Assembly (NCBI GenBank): GCA_040752125.1
Contig: JBFMFK010000003.1
Location: 19,034 to 83,033 of the forward strand
Reading direction: 5' to 3'
DNA: 64,000 nucleotides
Origin: Patescibacteria group bacterium
GTDB taxonomy: Bacteria > Patescibacteriota > Minisyncoccia > UBA9983
Shown here: piece by piece, positions 9,734-64,000 of the stretch
How positions within the stretch are numbered: position 1 is the stretch's first letter
Layout of the letters: every line of letters begins with the position of its first letter
Program-made: the position numbers and the translations under genes
Notes under the pieces: generated by a model
Seen by the model: only the letters and a program-made list of their open reading frames with translations
Databases searched by the model: none
What the model was told of the DNA's origin: nothing

Positions 9734-11053
9734 ATGGAAGAAAGAAATGTCGTAATAAAACTAGAGAATGTAGATTTTTACTACGATAAAGGCAAACCCA
9801 CTGAGGTGAGGGCGCTTAAAGAAATTGATCTTGACATTAAGACTGGTGATTATGTTAGTTTTTTCGGTCCGTCCGGTTGCGGCAAATCTACCATACTTTA
9901 CGTTATTGCTGGCGTGGAAAAGCCGGAATCAGGAAGGGTATTGGTCAATAATCAGGATCTGATGACTTTTTCTCCCAGAGAATTGGCAATTTACAGGCAG
10001 GTTGCCATTGGAATAATTTTTCAGAATTTTAATCTTATACCATCTGTCAGAAATATAGATAATGTTACCTTACCGATGGCCTTTTTGGGAATTTCTCCTG
10101 AAAGAAGAAGGCGCAGAGCAATGGAGATTCTTGGCCGTCTGGACATAGATGATTTAGCAGATCGTTTTCCGCATGAATTGTCCGGAGGCCAGCAGCAGAG
10201 AGTGGCCATTGCTCGAGCAATGGCCAATGACCCACCGATTATTTTAGCTGACGAACCTCTTGGCAATCTTGACACTGCCAATGCCACCAATGTTCTTGAC
10301 CTTTTAAGAAAATTCAAGGAAAGAGACGGTAAAACTATTGTTATGGTTACTCACGAGGCCTGGAGCTTGCGCGATGTGGATCGAGTCTTTTATATGCGCG
10401 ACGGAGCCATTATTAGAATAGAAGAGAGGAAAAAGAAAGAATCTGAATTGAAAAAAGTCGGCACATCATTTTATTACAAAAAGCTCTTTCCCGAATTGGC
10501 AGATGTTGAGAGCAGGGCCAAGGCAGTGGCATCTTTGATGCTTAGAGGCCATTCAAAAGAAGAAGTGAAAAGATTGGAATTTTTTCTCGTGCAGCTGATG
10601 AGGAAAAATATTGAAAAAGATTTATTCAAAAGGTGTCTGGATAGGCCATTTAAAAATGGCGGGGTCGGTCTTTGGAGACAGAAGGCTAATAAGATCGCTG
10701 ATTATGTTGAAGAGATCATCCAAGCACAGTCAGATCTTTCTGTGCTTTATAAAAAATTGGAGAAATTCCCTGATGCTCCATTATATGAAGAAATCAGCAA
10801 TTTGAGAAAGTGGCTGATTGAAGGATATGATTTGCGGTTAACACCGCTTCAAATGGGCCGCCTCAATGAAATTATTGGCGAGAGAATCAGAAATATAATC
10901 TCTGCTGAAGATTTTAAGAAAATTCTTGACCTTTCCAAAGATAAAGGAGGGGTGGGGCTGAAAATCCAGACCAGTTTAAAAATGGCTGAAAAATTGGAAA
11001 CCTTTTTGGGCAAACAAAAGACAGAAGAAATAAATAAAGAAGTAATCGTGTAG
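9734..11053 (+). CDS. ABC transporter ATP-binding protein (MacB/LolD/FtsE-type) with ~220-aa C-terminal extension containing an internal duplication
   Basis: Walker A GPSGCGKST, signature LSGGQQQRVAIARA and Walker B ILADEP are present. The C-terminal tail carries two KxGGVGL repeats (FKNGGVGLWRQK... and SKDKGGVGLKIQ...). Confidence 0.8.
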   Translation: MEERNVVIKLENVDFYYDKGKPTEVRALKEIDLDIKTGDYVSFFGPSGCGKSTILYVIAGVEKPESGRVLVNNQDLMTFSPRELAIYRQVAIGIIFQNFNLIPSVRNIDNVTLPMAFLGISPERRRRRAMEILGRLDIDDLADRFPHELSGGQQQRVAIARAMANDPPIILADEPLGNLDTANATNVLDLLRKFKERDGKTIVMVTHEAWSLRDVDRVFYMRDGAIIRIEERKKKESELKKVGTSFYYKKLFPELADVESRAKAVASLMLRGHSKEEVKRLEFFLVQLMRKNIEKDLFKRCLDRPFKNGGVGLWRQKANKIADYVEEIIQAQSDLSVLYKKLEKFPDAPLYEEISNLRKWLIEGYDLRLTPLQMGRLNEIIGERIRNIISAEDFKKILDLSKDKGGVGLKIQTSLKMAEKLETFLGKQKTEEINKEVIV

Positions 11054-20335: not shown

Positions 20336-20411
20336 CGTTAAAATCAGAAATTAAAAATCAAAACTCTTTGTAATTTGTTAAAAATATGTTATATTATATT
20401 TTTGACATTAT

Positions 20412-29465: not shown

Positions 29466-29596
29466 TCTATTTAGCATCCGCATCCGATTTTCGATTTTCG
29501 ATGTTTAATCGAACTTATATTTGCTATAGCAGATATAAGTACATTTAAATATAAATACATTACAAATGTTACCTTTTTTTATTCACTAAATTCCTT

Positions 29597-29699
29597 TGTG
29601 GAAGTTATCCACAATCTTTTATTTGGAAAATAAAGAAAAGTGGAGTATAGTGTTAATAAAGTGGTAGATTGTGGATAATTGTGTGGATAATGTGGATAA
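29597..29699. promoter_or_regulatory. DnaA-box cluster: TTATCCACA (29605..29613) and three TGTGGATAA (29670..29678, 29682..29690, 29691..29699) plus a 2-mismatch box at 29597; adjacent AT-rich tract 29536..29590
   Basis: Four perfect 9-mers matching the E. coli/B. subtilis DnaA-box consensus fall within 95 bp, immediately upstream of mraZ. Confidence 0.6.
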
Positions 29700-43520: not shown

Positions 43521-43550
43521 GGCTTGCCCTGCGAAGCTTCAGCGAAGTGG

Positions 43551-43622
43551 GACCTCTTCGTCTAGTGGTTAGGACACATGGTTCTCAGCCATGCAACACG
43601 GGTTCGACTCCCGTAGAGGTCA
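43551..43622 (+). tRNA. tRNA-Glu (anticodon CUC)
   Basis: Cloverleaf drawn by hand. The acceptor stem is GACCTCT/AGAGGTC. The anticodon stem is CATGG/CCATG with loop TTCTCAG, and the T-arm is ACGGG-TTCGACT-CCCGT. Confidence 0.85.
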
Positions 43623-43639
43623 ATGCTATAATAAGACCA

Positions 43640-46306
43640 ATGTTAAGACAGGCAATTGCTTGGCATAGTTTGGATTTAAAAGAAATAAAAAAACAATTGG
43701 CGACTGATTTTAGCAATGGTTTAAGTGAAAAAGAAGCGCAAAAGCGGCAGAAACATTACGGCAAAAATCTTTTTGAGAAAAAAAAGAAATTTTATTATCT
43801 TAAACTTTTATGGAAGCAAATAAAAAGCCCCCTTATTTTTATCTTAATCATCGCCGGCCTTATCACTCTCATTTTAAAAGAATATGCTAACACTACTGTT
43901 ATTTTCATCGCTGTTTTTATAAATACTTTAATGGGCATCTTTCAGGAAGGTCGGAGTTCGCGGGCTTTTGAAAAATTGCAAGCATCACAGAAAAAATACG
44001 CCACCCTTGTCAGGGAGGGTAGAAAAAAAATAATAGAATCTTCCGAACTTGTTCCCGGCGATATTATTGAAATCCAAATGGGGAATCAGGTGCCAGCGGA
44101 TGCCCGCATCATAGAATCAAAGAGGTTGGAAGCCAATGAAGCAGTTTTAACAGGGGAATGGCTGCCAGTCAAAAAAGACAATCAAAAATCTCTGCCTGAG
44201 AAAACACATATCACTGACAGGAGCAATATGTTGTGGATGGGGAGTTTGGTGACAGAGGGGTGGGGAAGAGGCGTTGTTGCAGATACGGGTTTCAACAGCC
44301 AAGTCGGCCGCATCGCTGAATTTATAAGCGGAGAAGATACGGTTGTTACGCCGCTTCAAAAAAATACAAAAAAATTGGCTAAGTTTCTGAGTTTTATCGT
44401 TGTTTTGTCGCTGTTGGTTTTGATCATCCTGGGTTTGTGGCGGGGCCAGAACTTTTTTGGCATATTTTTAACTGCTGTAGCTCTGGCAGTGTCAGCTATT
44501 CCCGAGGGCCTGCCAGTGGCAGTGACAGTGGTTTTAGCAATAGGAATGCAGAAAATTTTTTCCAAAAACGGCCTGCTGAAAAATTTAGATTCAGCAGAAA
44601 CCCTTGGTTCCACTTCTCTCATTCTCACTGACAAAACCGGCACCCTTACAAAGGCAGAGATGAATGTGGAAAAAATCATTACTTTGCTTTCCGAAGAAAA
44701 CAAATTAAAGCCAAAAGAACACAAAGACAGATTGGCTGTTTTAGAGATGGCTTTGCTAGCCACTGAAGCATTTATAGAAAATCCTCAAGATAATCTCGGA
44801 GAATGGATTATTAGAGGAAATCCAATGGGGAGGGCAATTTTTCTGGCTTCCTTGGAATCAGATATCCAGCCTTTGGTCTTGCAAAAAGAGCATAAGCGCA
44901 TTGATTTTATACCTTTTGACGCGGGCAGAAGATATGCCGCTTCCTTATATAAAAAAAATAATCAGGAATCTTATATTTTTGTCATTGGCGCGCCAGAAGT
45001 TATTCTTCAGTTTTGCAACAAAATTTACAAAAAAGAAAAGGAAATTGCTCTTAGCGAACCAATACTCAAATTATTAAACAAGGCCTCTTTGGAAGAAACC
45101 TCAAAAGGCGCGAGAATTTTAGCTGTGGCTTACAGAAAGGCAGATTGGGATTCTTTTCCCAGAGAGCAAGAGAAGAAACATAAGGAAATTTTTTCAAAGA
45201 TGACCTTGGGAGGATTTATTGCCTTTCATGACCCCTTAAGAGAGAATGCCAAGCAGTATTTGCAAGAGTCAAAGGAAGCATCTATAAGAACTGTGCTGGT
45301 AACCGGCGACCATGTGGAAACCGCTAAAAAAATCGGAGAGGAAGTCGGAATTTTACGCAAAAACGGACTTGTTTTAACAGGAGATGAGTTAGAAAAAATG
45401 AGCGACAAAGAACTCGAGGAGATAATCGGAAAAGTAGATATTTTTGCTCGAGTCCTGCCCCAGCAAAAAATGAGAATTTCAAATTTCTGGCAGCAAAGAG
45501 GGGAAATAGTGGCTATGACCGGCGACGGAGTTAATGACGCGCCTGCCTTAAAGCACGCTGATATCGGAATTGCTCTTGGTTCAGGCACCGAGGTGGCAAA
45601 AGAAGCGTCAGATTTAATTCTTTTAAATGATAGTTTTAATACTATTGTGGAGGCAGTTAAGGAAGGAAGAAGAATCATGGATAATTTAAGAAAAATTATT
45701 ACCTATCTTTTGTCAACGTCTTTCAGTGAAATCGTCTTAGTGGCGAGCTCCATTCTGGTTGGCGCGCCATTGCCAATTCTGCCTGCGCAAATTCTCTGGG
45801 TCAATATCATAGAGGAAGGTTTTATGAATTTTGCCTTTGCTTTTGAGCAGGCTGAAGAGAATATTTTAAAAAGAGACCCCAAAAAAGAATGCAGCAGGGC
45901 AATTTTGACAACACGAATAAAAAAAATGATTTTGATAATAGTGGCAATAACCAGTCTTTTGCTTATCTCTGTATTTTTTTTCTTAGATTATAAAAATTAT
46001 CCCCTGGAAAAAGTAAGAACGGTTATGTTTGGGGCTATGGCCATAGATGCAATATTTTTCAGTTTTTCCCTCAAGAATCTGCGAAAGCCGGTTTGGAAAA
46101 TCAATATCTTTTCCAACATTTATCTTCTTTTCTCGCTATCAGTCAGTATTTTTCTTTTGCTGAGTGTTTTATTTATTCCTTTTCTGCAAAAATTGCTTTC
46201 TGTTGTTTCGCTTAGTTTTTTAGAATTAATGATTATTTTTATTATCGGCTTTTTGAATCTTTTGACCATAGAAACAGTAAAATATTTCGTCTTTAGAAAA
46301 CAATAA
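43640..46306 (+). CDS. P-type Ca2+-transporting ATPase (P2-type)
   Basis: DKTGTLT, TGDGVNDAPALK and the PEGLP TM4 motif are present. The supplied ORF (from 43547) reads through tRNA-Glu, so the start is taken at ATG 43640 (MLRQAIAWHSLDLKEIKK…). Confidence 0.85.
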   Translation: MLRQAIAWHSLDLKEIKKQLATDFSNGLSEKEAQKRQKHYGKNLFEKKKKFYYLKLLWKQIKSPLIFILIIAGLITLILKEYANTTVIFIAVFINTLMGIFQEGRSSRAFEKLQASQKKYATLVREGRKKIIESSELVPGDIIEIQMGNQVPADARIIESKRLEANEAVLTGEWLPVKKDNQKSLPEKTHITDRSNMLWMGSLVTEGWGRGVVADTGFNSQVGRIAEFISGEDTVVTPLQKNTKKLAKFLSFIVVLSLLVLIILGLWRGQNFFGIFLTAVALAVSAIPEGLPVAVTVVLAIGMQKIFSKNGLLKNLDSAETLGSTSLILTDKTGTLTKAEMNVEKIITLLSEENKLKPKEHKDRLAVLEMALLATEAFIENPQDNLGEWIIRGNPMGRAIFLASLESDIQPLVLQKEHKRIDFIPFDAGRRYAASLYKKNNQESYIFVIGAPEVILQFCNKIYKKEKEIALSEPILKLLNKASLEETSKGARILAVAYRKADWDSFPREQEKKHKEIFSKMTLGGFIAFHDPLRENAKQYLQESKEASIRTVLVTGDHVETAKKIGEEVGILRKNGLVLTGDELEKMSDKELEEIIGKVDIFARVLPQQKMRISNFWQQRGEIVAMTGDGVNDAPALKHADIGIALGSGTEVAKEASDLILLNDSFNTIVEAVKEGRRIMDNLRKIITYLLSTSFSEIVLVASSILVGAPLPILPAQILWVNIIEEGFMNFAFAFEQAEENILKRDPKKECSRAILTTRIKKMILIIVAITSLLLISVFFFLDYKNYPLEKVRTVMFGAMAIDAIFFSFSLKNLRKPVWKINIFSNIYLLFSLSVSIFLLLSVLFIPFLQKLLSVVSLSFLELMIIFIIGFLNLLTIETVKYFVFRKQ

Positions 46307-47275: not shown

Positions 47276-47319
47276 AATTTTATAAGATTATTCATTATAT
47301 TTATAAAATTAAGATTATT

Positions 47320-47347
47320 AAGTATTTCTACGATCGTAACTATACTT
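47320..47347. promoter_or_regulatory. 28-bp palindrome AAGTAT-ttc-TACGATCGTA-act-ATACTT overlapping the -35 region of the PaaX-like gene promoter (extended -10 TGTATAAT at 47362..47369, start codon 6 nt later)
   Basis: Direct read. A related copy, AAGTATTCTTACGATCGTAGCGATATTT, lies downstream of the gene at 47955..47982. Confidence 0.5.
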
Positions 47348-47375
47348 AATAGTTGTATTTTTGTATAATTGAGCT

Positions 47376-47927
47376 ATGGCAAGATATAGTCCCTATAGAA
47401 AAAAGATTCTTTTAATGCTTTTGGCTGGTGTGGCTTTAGGATTGACTTATTCTCCGAGAGGTCAAAAAAAGATTCTGAAAGCATTTATAAAAGATTGGAA
47501 AAATATAGAACGCGACAGATTATATTATCTACTGAATGAGTTTAAATATGAACGGCTGATAGATTATCAAGAATCAAGTAATGGAACAATCAAGGTTATA
47601 TTAACTGAAAATGGTAAGAAAAAAGCGCTTCAGTATGACTTTGATGAAATAAAAATTAAAAAACCAAGTCAATGGGATGGTAAATGGAGATTGGTTATAT
47701 TTGACATTCCGGAGCGAATTAGAAAAGGGAGGGATGCTTTAAGAGATAAATTAAAAGACCTTGATTTTTATGAATTGCAAAAAAGTGTCTGGGTTCATCC
47801 GTATCCTTGCGAAGATGAGATTAATTTTATAACCGAAGTTTTTGACTTAAGATCTTATATTAGATTTGCTGAAATAATAAAAATTACAAATGAAGCAAAA
47901 TTAAAATTGCATTTTAAATTATATTAA
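47376..47927 (+). CDS. PaaX-like small transcriptional regulator (N-terminal winged helix + WDGKW…VIFDIPE C-terminal domain), paralog 1
   Basis: WDGKWRLVIFDIPE matches the PaaX middle-domain hallmark WDGKW. It is 45% identical to the minus-strand paralog at 63205..63759. Confidence 0.6.
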   Translation: MARYSPYRKKILLMLLAGVALGLTYSPRGQKKILKAFIKDWKNIERDRLYYLLNEFKYERLIDYQESSNGTIKVILTENGKKKALQYDFDEIKIKKPSQWDGKWRLVIFDIPERIRKGRDALRDKLKDLDFYELQKSVWVHPYPCEDEINFITEVFDLRSYIRFAEIIKITNEAKLKLHFKLY

Positions 47928-48042
47928 ATTGTGCATCGCGCATAAGTATTAAGTATTCTTACGATCGTAGCGATATTTCATAGTTTAGCTGGCTAGCTGG
48001 TTAGTTGATTAAATTAGATTTAAATGGAAAATGGAAAACAAA

Positions 48043-52686: not shown

Positions 52687-53184
52687 TTAATTTTTACCTG
52701 TCAGTTCTTTCCAGTGAGTCTTTGGTCGTAGACGTTTAGATCCCTGTTTGCATAAAGCACATTCTTCTGGTGGCACTGCCCAGATTTCTTTTTCTATCAA
52801 AGCAACAATGAGTCTTTTACCATAATAATCAATTGGCAGTTTTGGCGGCCGATGGACAAGAATACCAACATAAGGAAGAAAATTAACTGGATTTGGGTTC
52901 CCTTCTCTTATTGCTCTCTCTACCTCATTAAGGGTATGAGCAGTAGTTGTAAGTTCCTCAATTTGTAAGACTGAATCTCCTTCTGGGATTGCCATTCTTT
53001 TCCATATCATTTTTTTACCTTTTGGATCAGTTGGGTCTTTTTCTACGCACATATTGATAGGTGCACTAATGGCTCTAGCCACATCGTGGGCAAAAGTAAT
53101 TCCAGCCATAGGAGAACCTATTACCCAATCAACTCTGGTGTCAATTTTGCTGTAAGCAATAATCTTACGGATTTTTTCCCCCAA
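52687..53184 (-). CDS. type I phosphoribosyltransferase-fold protein (PRPP-binding-like motif VLQIEELTTTAHTL), TTG start
   Basis: The supplied ORF starts at a TTG. There is no ATG in the in-frame upstream stretch up to the stop at 53281. VIGSPMAGITFAHDVA and LQIEELTTTAHT resemble PRTase loops. Confidence 0.45.
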   Translation of the reverse strand: MGEKIRKIIAYSKIDTRVDWVIGSPMAGITFAHDVARAISAPINMCVEKDPTDPKGKKMIWKRMAIPEGDSVLQIEELTTTAHTLNEVERAIREGNPNPVNFLPYVGILVHRPPKLPIDYYGKRLIVALIEKEIWAVPPEECALCKQGSKRLRPKTHWKELTGKN

Positions 53185-53350
53185 CTGGTCTGCTAGGATA
53201 TCAGAAAGATTAATATATTTGAGAACTCGTAAGCAATCGAAGAACCCAATAATATTCCTAACATTTTGAAGTAAATTTTGTCAACTATCCCCTATTCCAT
53301 GCCATAGTAATGAATAGATGACAATATGTCGCAAAATAAAGTGAACATTT

Positions 53351-53371
53351 ATCTGCGATAGCAAGTATATG
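53351..53371. promoter_or_regulatory. 21-nt core ATCTGCGATAGCAAGTATATG (copy a), identical to 63154..63174 and related to 63809..63829
   Basis: Exact 21/21 match with the copy upstream of rplU. It lies about 170 nt upstream of the minus-strand PRTase gene. Confidence 0.6.
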
Positions 53372-53437
53372 TACATTATCTCAAAAAATCTCAAAAGAAA
53401 AATTAAAAATAAAAAAGCAGCATCTTTCAACCACCTT

Positions 53438-53821
53438 TTATTTCAACCCTTTGCAGTTGGAAGCAGGGACATAGCCGGCCTTGCGTGCCTCTTCTATGGA
53501 AGAAAACCAAATTTTATTTTCTTCTTTTATTTGCTGAGCACCGCCACACCAAGGATAGTGGTATTTAGTGCCGTTTTTAGAAGCCACAACACTTCCGTGC
53601 GAATCGAAACCGGGTTTCGATTCTATCATAAGGTTGGCACTCAAATTTTCTATGGTTATAGGTACTCTATTTTCCCTTATTTTTGATAATCTGCCCAAGC
53701 CAAAACTAATCAAGGCAACAAGAATAATAACCATTACTAAAAGAATATCTTTTTCATAAGATTGAATTTTGGATTTGCATTTTTTTACGGTTTCTGTTAA
53801 CATATAAGGAATATGGCTCAT
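53438..53821 (-). CDS. membrane-anchored hypothetical protein with C-terminal KYHYPWC…[12 protein letters not shown]…C domain
   Basis: It has one TM helix. The C-terminal motif resembles a small Cys-containing domain seen at the ends of many Firmicutes/CPR membrane proteins. It is preferred over the implausible overlapping plus-strand ORF 53369..53686. Confidence 0.4.
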
Positions 53822-54091
53822 CGTAAAGCTGGTGGTACAGCTAAAAACTTAAGAGATTCACAGCCGAAATTTTTAGGCGTAAAACTTTATGGCGGTCATT
53901 CTGCAAAGCCTGGGTCTATTTTGGTTCGCCAGCGCGGTACGCAGATACTTCCCGGAAATAATGTCAAAATGGGGAAAGATCATACTTTATATGCTGTTAA
54001 TGCTGGCATTGTGAAATTCACAGAAAAAAGAAAAACAAGATTTGACAGAAAAATTCGGAGATATAAAATTGTTAATGTTATCCCCTCTTAG
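53813..54091 (+). CDS. rpmA: 50S ribosomal protein L27
   Basis: The N-terminus reads [17 protein letters not shown]. Confidence 0.9.
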
Positions 54092-58220: not shown

Positions 58221-58261
58221 TTAATTTATTATCACAGATTTATATTCTTTTTTCAATGTTT

Positions 58262-58295
58262 GGAGGTTGAACCTCTGTTTAGAGGTTCAACCTCC
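58262..58295. promoter_or_regulatory. perfect 15-bp inverted repeat GGAGGTTGAACCTCT-gttt-AGAGGTTCAACCTCC in divergent ctpA / corA-like intergenic region
   Basis: Direct read. Each arm is also internally palindromic around GGTTGAACC. Confidence 0.5.
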
Positions 58296-58367
58296 TGCGC
58301 GTTTCCATCGCTTTTTTATATTGTCCTTTTATTTCAAAATTAGACATTATATAATAAATCCAATAAT

Positions 58368-63038: not shown

Positions 63039-63147
63039 ATAAGTATGATATTACATTAAATTTAAAATAAATACAAGCTTTTACCTAATTTTTACCTAAA
63101 ATGTTTAAAATCTATAGAAAATCAATTCAATAGGAACAACAATGGAT

Positions 63148-63181
63148 TTACCATATATCTGCGATAGCAAGTATATGGTAA
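63148..63181. promoter_or_regulatory. TTACCATATA-TCTGCGATAGCAAG-TATATGGTAA: perfect 10-bp inverted arms around the 14-nt core; copy b, upstream of rplU and downstream of PaaX-like paralog 2
   Basis: Direct read. Confidence 0.6.
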
Positions 63182-63204
63182 TCTATGTACTGCTCTATTT
63201 AAAT

Positions 63205-63759
63205 TTATAATAAATCAAAATGTTTTTTTAAATGCAATTCATTATCTATTGAATCAGCAATAATGAATCTTACAAATTTTCTTATATCATAAAATTCTAT
63301 AAGGTAATCTATTTCATTTTTACAATCGTAGGGGTGAACAAAAACACTCTTTTGAAATTCATAAAATGCCAATTGTTTCAAATAAAATCGTAAAGCTTCT
63401 CTTATCTTTTTTCTCTTTTCAGGAATATCAAAAAGCACTACTCGCCATTTTTTATCCCATTTTTGTGGCTTTTTAATTTTCATTTTATCCAGATCATAAG
63501 TGAGAGCTTTTTGTTTTCCTTTATCAGTGAGAATTATTGTTAAAGTCCCATCTAGATTTTGTCTTTCCGCAACCAGTTTTGATTCATATAAACTTTTTAT
63601 TGCTCTTCTAAGTGCCCGCACTTCAATCTCTTTCCATTCTTTACTCATGCCCTTAAGAATCTGAAAATATCTTTTTGGCGAGCCAGAAAGTCCTAAAGCT
63701 AAACCACCTAAAAGCAAAAGCAATATTTTTTGTTGTATTTCTCCCGGTCCTCTTGGCAT
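63205..63759 (-). CDS. PaaX-like small transcriptional regulator, paralog 2
   Basis: WDKKWRVVLFDIPE is present. The architecture matches the 47376 gene. Confidence 0.6.
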   Translation of the reverse strand: MPRGPGEIQQKILLLLLGGLALGLSGSPKRYFQILKGMSKEWKEIEVRALRRAIKSLYESKLVAERQNLDGTLTIILTDKGKQKALTYDLDKMKIKKPQKWDKKWRVVLFDIPEKRKKIREALRFYLKQLAFYEFQKSVFVHPYDCKNEIDYLIEFYDIRKFVRFIIADSIDNELHLKKHFDLL

Positions 63760-63799
63760 AATTCAATTTTATAATTATTTTATAATAATTATAGAACAA

Positions 63800-63832
63800 T
63801 TACCATATACCAGCGATAGCAAATATATGGCA
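63800..63832. promoter_or_regulatory. TTACCATATA-CCAGCGATAGCAAA-TATATGGCA: copy c of the palindrome, immediately upstream of PaaX-like paralog 2 (overlapping its probable -35/-10 region)
   Basis: Direct read. 28 of 33 nt are identical to copy b. Confidence 0.6.
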
Positions 63833-63857
63833 GATTGGATAATAAATTGATTCTTTA

Positions 63858-63892
63858 CGAATAAAAAAGGAGGCGTAAAATTTTAGCCTCCT
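63858..63892 (-). terminator. minus-strand rho-independent terminator (AAGGAGGC-gtaaaatttta-GCCTCCTT, T-run on minus strand) for a gene beyond the right window edge
   Basis: Direct read. On the minus strand the stem is followed by TTTTTTATTCG. Confidence 0.55.
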
Positions 63893-64000
63893 TGTTCTCG
63901 AGGAATACTTATCATTATTATTAGAGCCACTACTATATCCACTCTTCAGACCTCCTTTCAAAAATTTCTATTGTTTTCAAACTCTAAAATCAGGTTATCA

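Follow-up and report, generated by a model that had tools for sequence, protein, structure and literature searches.

A quasi-palindrome of ~34 bp, found repeatedly in a 64,000-nucleotide stretch of a Patescibacteria group bacterium genome (contig JBFMFK010000003.1, positions 19,034 to 83,033; hereafter the window), is probably the cognate operator recognized by a small PaaX-like repressor with a wide distribution among Patescibacteria, and copy A, with which the original prediction was concerned, is a solo copy of this element. In Patescibacteria (candidate phyla radiation, CPR), transcription control is little known and the reduced genomes encode few regulators. The PaaX-like proteins described here form an abundant and highly conserved family of putative small regulators (>2500 proteins), each having a private 34-bp palindrome in an apparently leaderless promoter as well as a 3' copy. 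This family-level pattern is the interesting result, and copy A is a minor member of it.

In the orientation of the downstream gene, the element has the form arm-YTTGC TATC GCWGR-arm', as in copy B (ACCATATA CTTGC TATC GCAGA TATATGGT). The original prediction had started from ATCTGCGATAGCAAGTATATG at 53351-53371 in copy A and had reported an identical second copy together with a related core near one of two PaaX-like paralogs, here termed P1 and P2 (Table 1). Both copies are indeed present, the 21/21 identical one in copy B at 63157-63177 rather than at 63154-63174. When the window was searched with up to three mismatches, the 17-mer GCGATAGCAAGTATATG was found exactly at 53355-53371 and 63161-63177, with one mismatch at 63813-63829, and with three mismatches at 29514-29530 on the other strand. 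These four matches compare with 0.08 expected from shuffles, and none of 100 shuffles reached four. The 26-nt sequence CATATANNNGCGATAGCAANTATATG occurs without mismatch in copies B and C (the core match of the latter, third copy is 63804-63829) and with a single mismatch in copy A (53346-53371), for a chance expectation of 0.00; copies A and B are identical at 25 of 26 positions. The fourth copy, D (29514-29539, plus strand), lies between lysS and mraZ and was absent from the earlier list. All four copies are intergenic, and in total the 64 kb hold four palindromes of the P2 type and two of the P1 type. The TATC strands of the window copies all agree with the direction of transcription, and every copy points to a downstream gene. 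The three copies that do not precede a PaaX-like gene (A, B, and D) are located 26-62 nt past the stop codon of a co-oriented upstream gene.

Table 1. Palindromes, PaaX-like genes, and genes around copy A, in window coordinates
Feature	Coordinates	Strand	Remarks
Copy A, solo palindrome GTACATATA CTTGC TATC GCAGA TAAATGTTC	53342..53375	-	least symmetric copy
Copy B, 3' copy of P2	63148..63181	-	26 nt past P2 stop codon; 13/17 pairs; ~88 nt upstream of the rplU promoter-like TTGTAT-17-TAATAT
Copy C, 5' copy of P2	63800..63833	-	centre 57 nt before ATG, promoter region
Copy D, solo palindrome	29510..29543	+	centre GC-TATA-GC, perfect 11-bp stem; between lysS stop (29465) and mraZ (29724); ~97 nt upstream of mraZ promoter-like site
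P1 5' palindrome TTAAGTATT TCTAC GATC GTAAC TATACTTAA	47317..47350	+	TATAAT box ends 6 nt before ATG
P1 3' palindrome	47948..47981	+	left arm and ACGATCGT core kept, right arm degenerate
PaaX-like paralog P1, 183 aa	47376..47927	+	50% identical to P2; tblastn, open reading frame (ORF) list
PaaX-like paralog P2, 184 aa	63205..63759	-	winged-helix-like N-terminus and Cas2-like PaaX_M, no PaaX C-terminal domain
Phosphoribosyltransferase (PRTase, pyrE-like) 5'-truncated remnant	52687..53247	-	ORF callable only from TTG at 53184
pyrF 5'-region block	53237..53285	-	probably homologous to L188; TTGACA at 53283-53278; deletion junction
Ada-Zn-binding-like domain gene	53438..53821	-	between copy A and rpmA; synteny in L192-L194
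rpmA	53813-54091	+	

Outside the window, the element accompanies genes for relatives of P2. A scan for the core in one genome per species returned matches that were mostly chance or Veillonella, and among the matches listed, copies with arms occurred only in Patescibacteria genomes: at least four in a Taylorbacteria metagenome-assembled genome (MAG), at least two in a Giovannonibacteria MAG, at least two in an unclassified Patescibacteria MAG, and at least one in Campbellbacteria. The core is common to these genomes, while the arms vary by genome yet stay complementary, as in ACCGTAATAATACTTGC TATC GCAAGTATTATTACGGT of L010 (Giovannonibacteria), which is a perfect 17-bp palindrome. In both L010 and L020, two copies flank the homolog of P2. 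A metagenome scan further identified 73 loci encoding PaaX-like relatives, and the bracket was read in the window, L010, L020, and ~35 metagenome loci (about 40 in total). For nearly all close homologs, the 5' palindrome has its dyad about 45-50 nt ahead of the ATG, and another copy is found 8-120 nt past the stop codon. The two copies are ~620-650 bp apart. Distant homologs (33-60% identity) have the same bracket made of unrelated sequences, such as CCCTGAG ATAGC GATC GCTAT CTCAGGG or AATAGAT TAGAC GGCC GTCTA ATCTATT, and other lineages have swapped the core for the unrelated GCTCGAGC, ACGATCGT, or GACGGCCGTC and kept the palindrome. A best palindrome of at least 12 of 17 pairs was present in 26/37 upstream and 23/36 downstream regions, compared with 4-5% of shuffled or random windows. 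Within a locus, the 5' and 3' copies share 70% identity, as compared with 45% for copies from different loci. Likewise, the P1 bracket of the window (47314-47985) is of another type than that of P2, having the core ACGATCGT and the arms TTAAGTAT. The bracket, together with a separate palindrome type for each window paralog, thus points to a cognate operator and to autorepression.

The genes around the bracket are steady within clades (PaaX-rplU-recR-dnaB in the window, L119, L133/134, and L195; a Mur ligase gene upstream in five loci) and vary between clades. Across loci, the neighbors include rplU, recR, dnaB, gatB, secA, Mur ligase, smc, and rpsP genes, with no paa genes nearby. The centers of the two copies are in inverted orientation in L010, L020/L115, L117, L128, L141, and L144. 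Four further observations concern individual brackets. A tandem duplication of 11 nt (ATTATAAAATA / ATTATAAAATT) separates copy C from the P2 ATG (63760-63797, minus strand). It gives rise to two candidate -10 boxes and shifts the copy C dyad to 57 nt from the ATG, as opposed to about 45-47 nt in relatives. In L195 (GCA_022013055.1), the 5' palindrome at 9920-9975 is a hybrid, with CCACTTA as its left and TATATGG as its right arm, and TTACCACTTACTTGC is duplicated in tandem, which suggests recombination or slippage between palindrome types. The PaaX-like cassette adjoins gatB in both L010 (3476-4130) and L124 (5940-6620), in opposite orientation, consistent with an inversion between the flanking palindromes. 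Lastly, secA is found recurrently near palindromes (L021, L122, L124, and L128), possibly as a conserved target. It follows the 3' copy in L122 and L128 and precedes the 5' copy in L124, and one Taylorbacteria solo copy is ~240 nt upstream of it.

The symmetry of the element is above chance. Among 75 distinct elements, the positions 6-15 nt from the dyad (k=6-15) are complementary in 69-91% of cases, in comparison to 26-53% when partner arms are swapped between elements. Each arm position shows three to four pair types, and the symmetry fades past k=15. Self-complementary centers (GATC, TCGA, TATA, GGCC, CATG, and TGCA) were found in 30 of the 75 elements (40%) vs. 6% expected, which fits recognition of double-stranded DNA by a dimer better than a hairpin loop. 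Forty-one copies are of the TATC type, and their inner positions (k=3-5) are conserved yet asymmetric, with T.T at k=3 in 26 and T.G at k=4 in 22. Known operator consensuses (CIRCE, NrdR box, LexA, dif, parS, and sigma-54) were compared by inspection only and none fits.

The bracketed genes encode short proteins related to PaaX. P2 matches the Pfam family PF20803 (PaaX_M) with an E value of 1.2e-21 and 77 bits vs. a cutoff of 24, and its L010 and L020 homologs match as well. Pfam detected just PaaX_M and weak Cas2 matches in the PaaX-like homologs, and transposase, recombinase, and HUH domains are absent. PaaX_C had no Pfam match in P2, which ends after the Cas2-like domain at 184 aa, and the close homologs are all 183-190 aa. 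A homolog search with P2 returned 2528 matches, the best of which are 70-86% identical at 184 aa and are labeled 'PaaX' or 'Cas2' by their sources, while a PDB sequence search found no relative. The AlphaFold2 (AF2) model of P2 has a mean predicted local distance difference test score (pLDDT) of 60. It places helices at residues 7-24, 28-39, and 48-57 and strands at 62-67 and 73-79 (H-H-H-E-E), which is compatible with a winged helix at a pLDDT of ~43 in this part, and these are followed by a beta-alpha-beta-beta-alpha-beta layout. A Foldseek search of the PDB retrieved E. coli PaaX (8a39; 172 columns, E 0.02) as the best match and then Cas2 dimers. The Cas2-type Asp in the FDIPE motif is invariant. 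Viral contigs contained no relative of the protein, and their 74 DNA matches lack arms.

The position of the 5' copy suggests how such a protein could act. When the best sigma-70-like promoter was located in 33 loci, its -35 box fell within the promoter-proximal arm in 19 of them, at +9 to +14 from the dyad, where hexamers such as TTGCTA, TTGATA, and ATGGCA are found. In those loci, 6-9 nt separate the end of the -10 hexamer from the ATG, and in 13 the distance is exactly 6 nt, which implies a leaderless mRNA. In three loci, the palindrome is instead located over the -10 box. We infer from this arrangement that a dimer, composed of a winged helix and a Cas2-like dimerization domain, would bind the palindrome. 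At the 5' copy, its promoter-proximal arm lies over the -35 box of the regulator's own, apparently leaderless promoter, and a dimer occupying this arm should block RNA polymerase and cause autorepression, as E. coli PaaX does at Px (PMC9493321). The 3' copy would most plausibly be either an auxiliary operator that loops with the 5' copy over ~620 bp or an insulator or roadblock, and a few solo copies are situated elsewhere. The proposal that the core is an operator for the PaaX-like protein is thus supported as far as the protein's own gene is concerned, as the cognate palindrome appears to overlap its promoter across ~40 loci, whereas control of the PRTase gene by copy A does not (see below).

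No credible promoter is present within the arm of the solo copies A, B, and D or of the four in Taylorbacteria. The nearest -35-like boxes are 75, 88, and 97 nt downstream of A, B, and D, respectively, and the copies overlap no recognizable promoter, contrary to the description of copy A as promoter-associated. Neither a fixed spacing nor a helical phase is evident from these distances. In the window and in L195, the 3' copy is about 60-90 nt upstream of the rplU promoter-like site and not over it. Copy B, originally noted as lying upstream of rplU, is the regular 3' copy of the family, which in L010 lies between convergent genes and is not readable there as a promoter element of the next gene. 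Downstream of copy D, the region just upstream of mraZ (29596-29651) contains GTGGA/GTGGAG repeats and a TTGGAA-17-TATAGT promoter-like site; such repeats upstream of mraZ are typical MraZ-box territory.

Several findings weigh against a protein operator. The arms are complementary at nearly every position from k=6 to k=15 (0.69-0.91 vs. 0.26-0.53 swapped), and compensatory changes distinguish copies of the same genome (B vs. D, the two L133 copies, and the two L119 copies). A protein is unlikely to read every arm base, so this pattern is the one expected from selection for base pairing, in a hairpin or a cruciform, although palindrome-correcting mutation or template switching could be an alternative source of the complementarity. 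Mismatches on the TATC strand are more often G.T than A.C (55 vs. 28), a bias that could point to strand-specific pairing. It is difficult to attribute the three arm types of the window (A; B/C; D) to a single protein, and a regular site right after a stop codon, between convergent genes in L010, is unusual for an operator. With regard to the protein, Pfam gave no PaaX N-terminal match at E<=0.01, with only a weak HTH_27 match in the L020 homolog, and the N-terminal domain of the AF2 model is poor (pLDDT ~43). Moreover, site similarity tracks the N- and C-terminal protein domains alike (partial r 0.16 vs. 0.14; partial Mantel test, p about 0.05); the test is not discriminating and gives no specific signal of co-evolution with the DNA-binding domain.

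Much of this evidence could be accommodated if the element acted as a single strand of RNA or DNA folded into a hairpin, whose variable 10-bp stem would be followed by a conserved internal loop and a tetraloop closed by GC. Such a hairpin would act as a terminator or insulator, or as an mRNA 3'-end stabilizer or processing site, bracketing the PaaX-like and a few other genes; the adjacent protein might even bind it via its RRM-like Cas2 domain. The covariation of stem positions with three to four pair types each, the compensatory changes within genomes, and the G.T excess together with the conserved T.G at k=4 all favor pairing, and copies B, C, and D fold with z scores of -4 to -5.6 relative to shuffles (B -4.9, D -5.6). 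The location of A, B, and D shortly past co-oriented stop codons, the TATC strands that follow transcription in the window, and the L010 copy placed like a bidirectional terminator are in keeping with this as well. However, about half of the 5' copies (about six minus and seven plus) and 4/17 3' copies have their TATC strand antisense to the gene, and this mixed orientation speaks against a strand-specific RNA. Self-complementary centers would be needless in a loop, and a generic hairpin would need neither the match between the 5' and 3' copies nor paralog-specific types. The stems are A+T-rich with just 2-4 G-C pairs and no T-run follows them, unlike the G+C-rich stem and T-run of an intrinsic terminator, and the promoter and terminator scans of the window did not call the elements. 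Rfam 15 yielded only two tRNAs at the gathering threshold in the whole window and no relevant match in 63040-63900 even at E<=10. The 5' copies are also upstream of the apparent transcription start and so would be outside the gene's own mRNA, and copy A barely folds on the transcribed strand. Overall, we consider the hairpin an unlikely explanation.

We assign a similarly low likelihood to the gene and its two palindromes being a self-propagating module, akin to RAYTs and their REPs or to a dif- or attC-like cassette, with copies A and D as products of copying or mobilization. The bracketing of the gene by cognate palindromes with a private type per paralog, as for REP classes and RAYTs, would be expected of such a module, and the inverted centers listed above, the hybrid arms and tandem partial duplication in L195, the opposite cassette orientations at gatB, the differing neighbors between clades, and the invariant FDIPE Asp could all be read in the same way. 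Copy A is also nearly identical to B and yet absent from the corresponding spacer of L188, and in the window it stands beside a deletion junction. On the other hand, copies are few. The many scattered copies that the original prediction had associated with a dispersed repeat were not encountered: there are four in 64 kb, no solo copies in 18 kb of the syntenic relative L195, and mostly none in other long loci. Each element is a bare ~34-bp palindrome, as opposed to the terminal inverted repeats around an internal segment of 50-500 bp with a target-site duplication of a miniature inverted-repeat transposable element, and the flanks of A, B, C, and D share neither extended similarity nor a direct duplication. 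Gene order is preserved within clades, the protein lacks any transposase, recombinase, or HUH domain, no target-site duplication was seen around copy A, and neither the protein nor an armed element was found on viral contigs. A promoter built into the arm at a fixed distance is, furthermore, a resident regulatory design. In its most explicit version, which has only a slim chance of being correct, the winged helix would recognize the palindrome or hairpin, the Cas2-like domain with its FDIPE Asp would process it, and the solo copies would be products as well as rearrangement hotspots.

Finally, it is very improbable that the core is a plain promoter element read by RNA polymerase without a dedicated regulator, since, although TTGCTA (-35) and TATAYT (-10, as in TATACT) hexamers occur on the minus-strand reading of every copy and all window copies aim at a downstream gene, A, B, and D lack a partner hexamer at 16-18 nt (best scores <=8/12, poor -10 boxes), which led us to reject the sigma-70 reading, the promoter scan is silent on the elements, other lineages replace the core but keep the palindrome, and one 3' copy lies between convergent genes.

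The operator reading leaves copy A with a modest place. Its arms are only partly symmetric, as originally noted, and on the gene strand it is the weakest hairpin (-5.8 kcal/mol, z -1.3). It had been placed upstream of the PRTase-fold gene, but this gene is a remnant: ORF 52687-53184 encodes 165 aa and is annotated by NCBI as a 165-aa hypothetical protein, whereas the 120 listed homologs are mostly 235-243 aa. Homology to the ortholog P0122 (88% identical; DNA 84.7%) begins exactly at 53247, corresponding to residue 57, and no homology to P0122 or its DNA was detected upstream of this position. The segment 53285-53237 aligns with the pyrF 5' region of L188 (GCA_043824145.1) at a local score reached by 4/500 shuffles, and this relic pyrF promoter block abuts PRTase codon 57. 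The gene order in L188 is Ada-like, 24 nt, pyrF, PRTase, PDDEXK, small ORF, and M23, while the window has Ada-like, truncated PRTase, PDDEXK, small ORF, and M23. Together with the junction block, this comparison indicates that the window lineage deleted pyrF and the first 56 PRTase codons. Copy A resides in ~125 nt that are missing from the orthologous spacer of L188, the closest relative, and no palindrome is present in that spacer. The relic TTGACA lies 75 nt downstream of the copy A dyad. The more distant L192-L194 have rpmA, the Ada-like gene, and the PDDEXK gene, with neither a PRTase gene nor a palindrome.

A second role proposed for copy A, co-regulation of the L21 and L27 genes (rplU and rpmA), fares no better, as a whole opposite-strand gene separates it from rpmA, and relatives have retained rpmA beside this Ada-like gene without a palindrome at that place. 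With a truncated PRTase, no counterpart in relatives, and no promoter in the arm, neither regulation of the PRTase gene by copy A nor a coupling of rpmA to rplU is supported. The arms of copy A are of the TGTACA type, those of B and C of the CCATATA type, and its left half (ATGTACATATACTTGCTATCGC) is the site type of the L020/L115/L117 lineage, not of B/C. It may thus have as its cognate protein a paralog whose gene lies beyond the window, and, judging from the sequence, copy A probably still binds the PaaX-like protein or such a paralog. It is a lineage-specific, partly degraded copy beside a deletion scar, of doubtful function here and probably non-regulatory, as no sign of control over the truncated PRTase, rpmA, or another gene was seen. 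Next to it, the longest ORF of the Ada-like gene would overlap the divergent rpmA start (53813) by 9 nt in the region 53803-53821, and the NCBI start at Met7 (121 aa) removes this overlap.

The family offers a directly testable protein-site pair, and regulons, or the spread of the palindrome, could be read from sequence alone. For annotation, the labels 'Cas2' and 'PaaX' are both misleading for the present proteins, and the 'PRTase' beside copy A should be flagged as a truncated remnant. Three unrelated features of the window were also recorded. A near-perfect G+C-containing palindrome at 58259-58298 (GGAGGTTGAACCTCT GTTT AGAGGTTCAACCTCC), between ctpB-like and corA-like genes (convergent or divergent), resembles a bidirectional terminator and has no relation to the PaaX-type elements. 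Between 16000 and 20000, just before the tRNA-Ala at 20411, G+C content is 0.40-0.44 vs. about 0.35 and the GC skew is reversed. The GTG start of ORF 43547-46306 (P-type ATPase) falls inside a tRNA-Glu (43551-43622), so the true start must be further downstream.

Literature searches on PaaX with a Cas2-like domain and on palindromic regulators of Patescibacteria gave no description of the bracket arrangement, and the family-level architecture thus appears to be undescribed. Its closest parallel is PaaX of the E. coli and Pseudomonas phenylacetate regulon, which has a winged-helix N-terminus, predicted by the model for the present proteins, and a Cas2-like central domain (PF20803). E. coli PaaX recognizes TGATTC-N27-GAATCA (~39 bp vs. 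~34 bp here) and represses its own Px promoter by steric hindrance (PMC9493321). Each of the two sites is long, with two-fold symmetry and arms set far apart, and this occlusion of RNA polymerase would match the -35 overlap of the present 5' copies. However, the PaaX site is symmetric in two hexamers only, whereas the present site is symmetric over its whole length. PaaX is also larger (~305-316 aa) and has a C-terminal effector domain for phenylacetyl-CoA; this domain is missing from the 184-aa protein, in which no phenylacetyl-CoA-type ligand site is therefore evident. In addition, PaaX is associated with paa genes, none of which are near the present family, and it lacks both the regular second copy past the stop codon and the several paralogs per genome with private sites. 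The REP/RAYT systems similarly comprise short extragenic imperfect palindromes that flank a small gene, often inverted, with a class per gene variant and solo intergenic copies. RAYTs, however, are HUH/Y1 (IS200/IS605-like) transposases, whereas the present protein has only PaaX_M and a weak Cas2 match; REPs number tens to hundreds of copies, as opposed to a few here, and, unlike REPs, the present 5' copy is in the promoter of the gene at a fixed distance and within-clade synteny is stable. The C proteins of restriction-modification systems and other autoregulated helix-turn-helix repressors are likewise small dimeric DNA-binding proteins with a palindrome over their own promoter, leaderless or short-leader transcripts, and an operator that diverges along with the protein. 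C-boxes are found only upstream, whereas the present family also has a 3' copy, the fold differs, and no restriction-modification genes are adjacent. Lastly, two cognate operators separated by hundreds of bp are familiar from lac O1/O2, gal OE/OI, and deo, and by analogy the ~620-650 bp between the present copies might be bridged by looping, a conjecture that extends to the formation of a tetramer.

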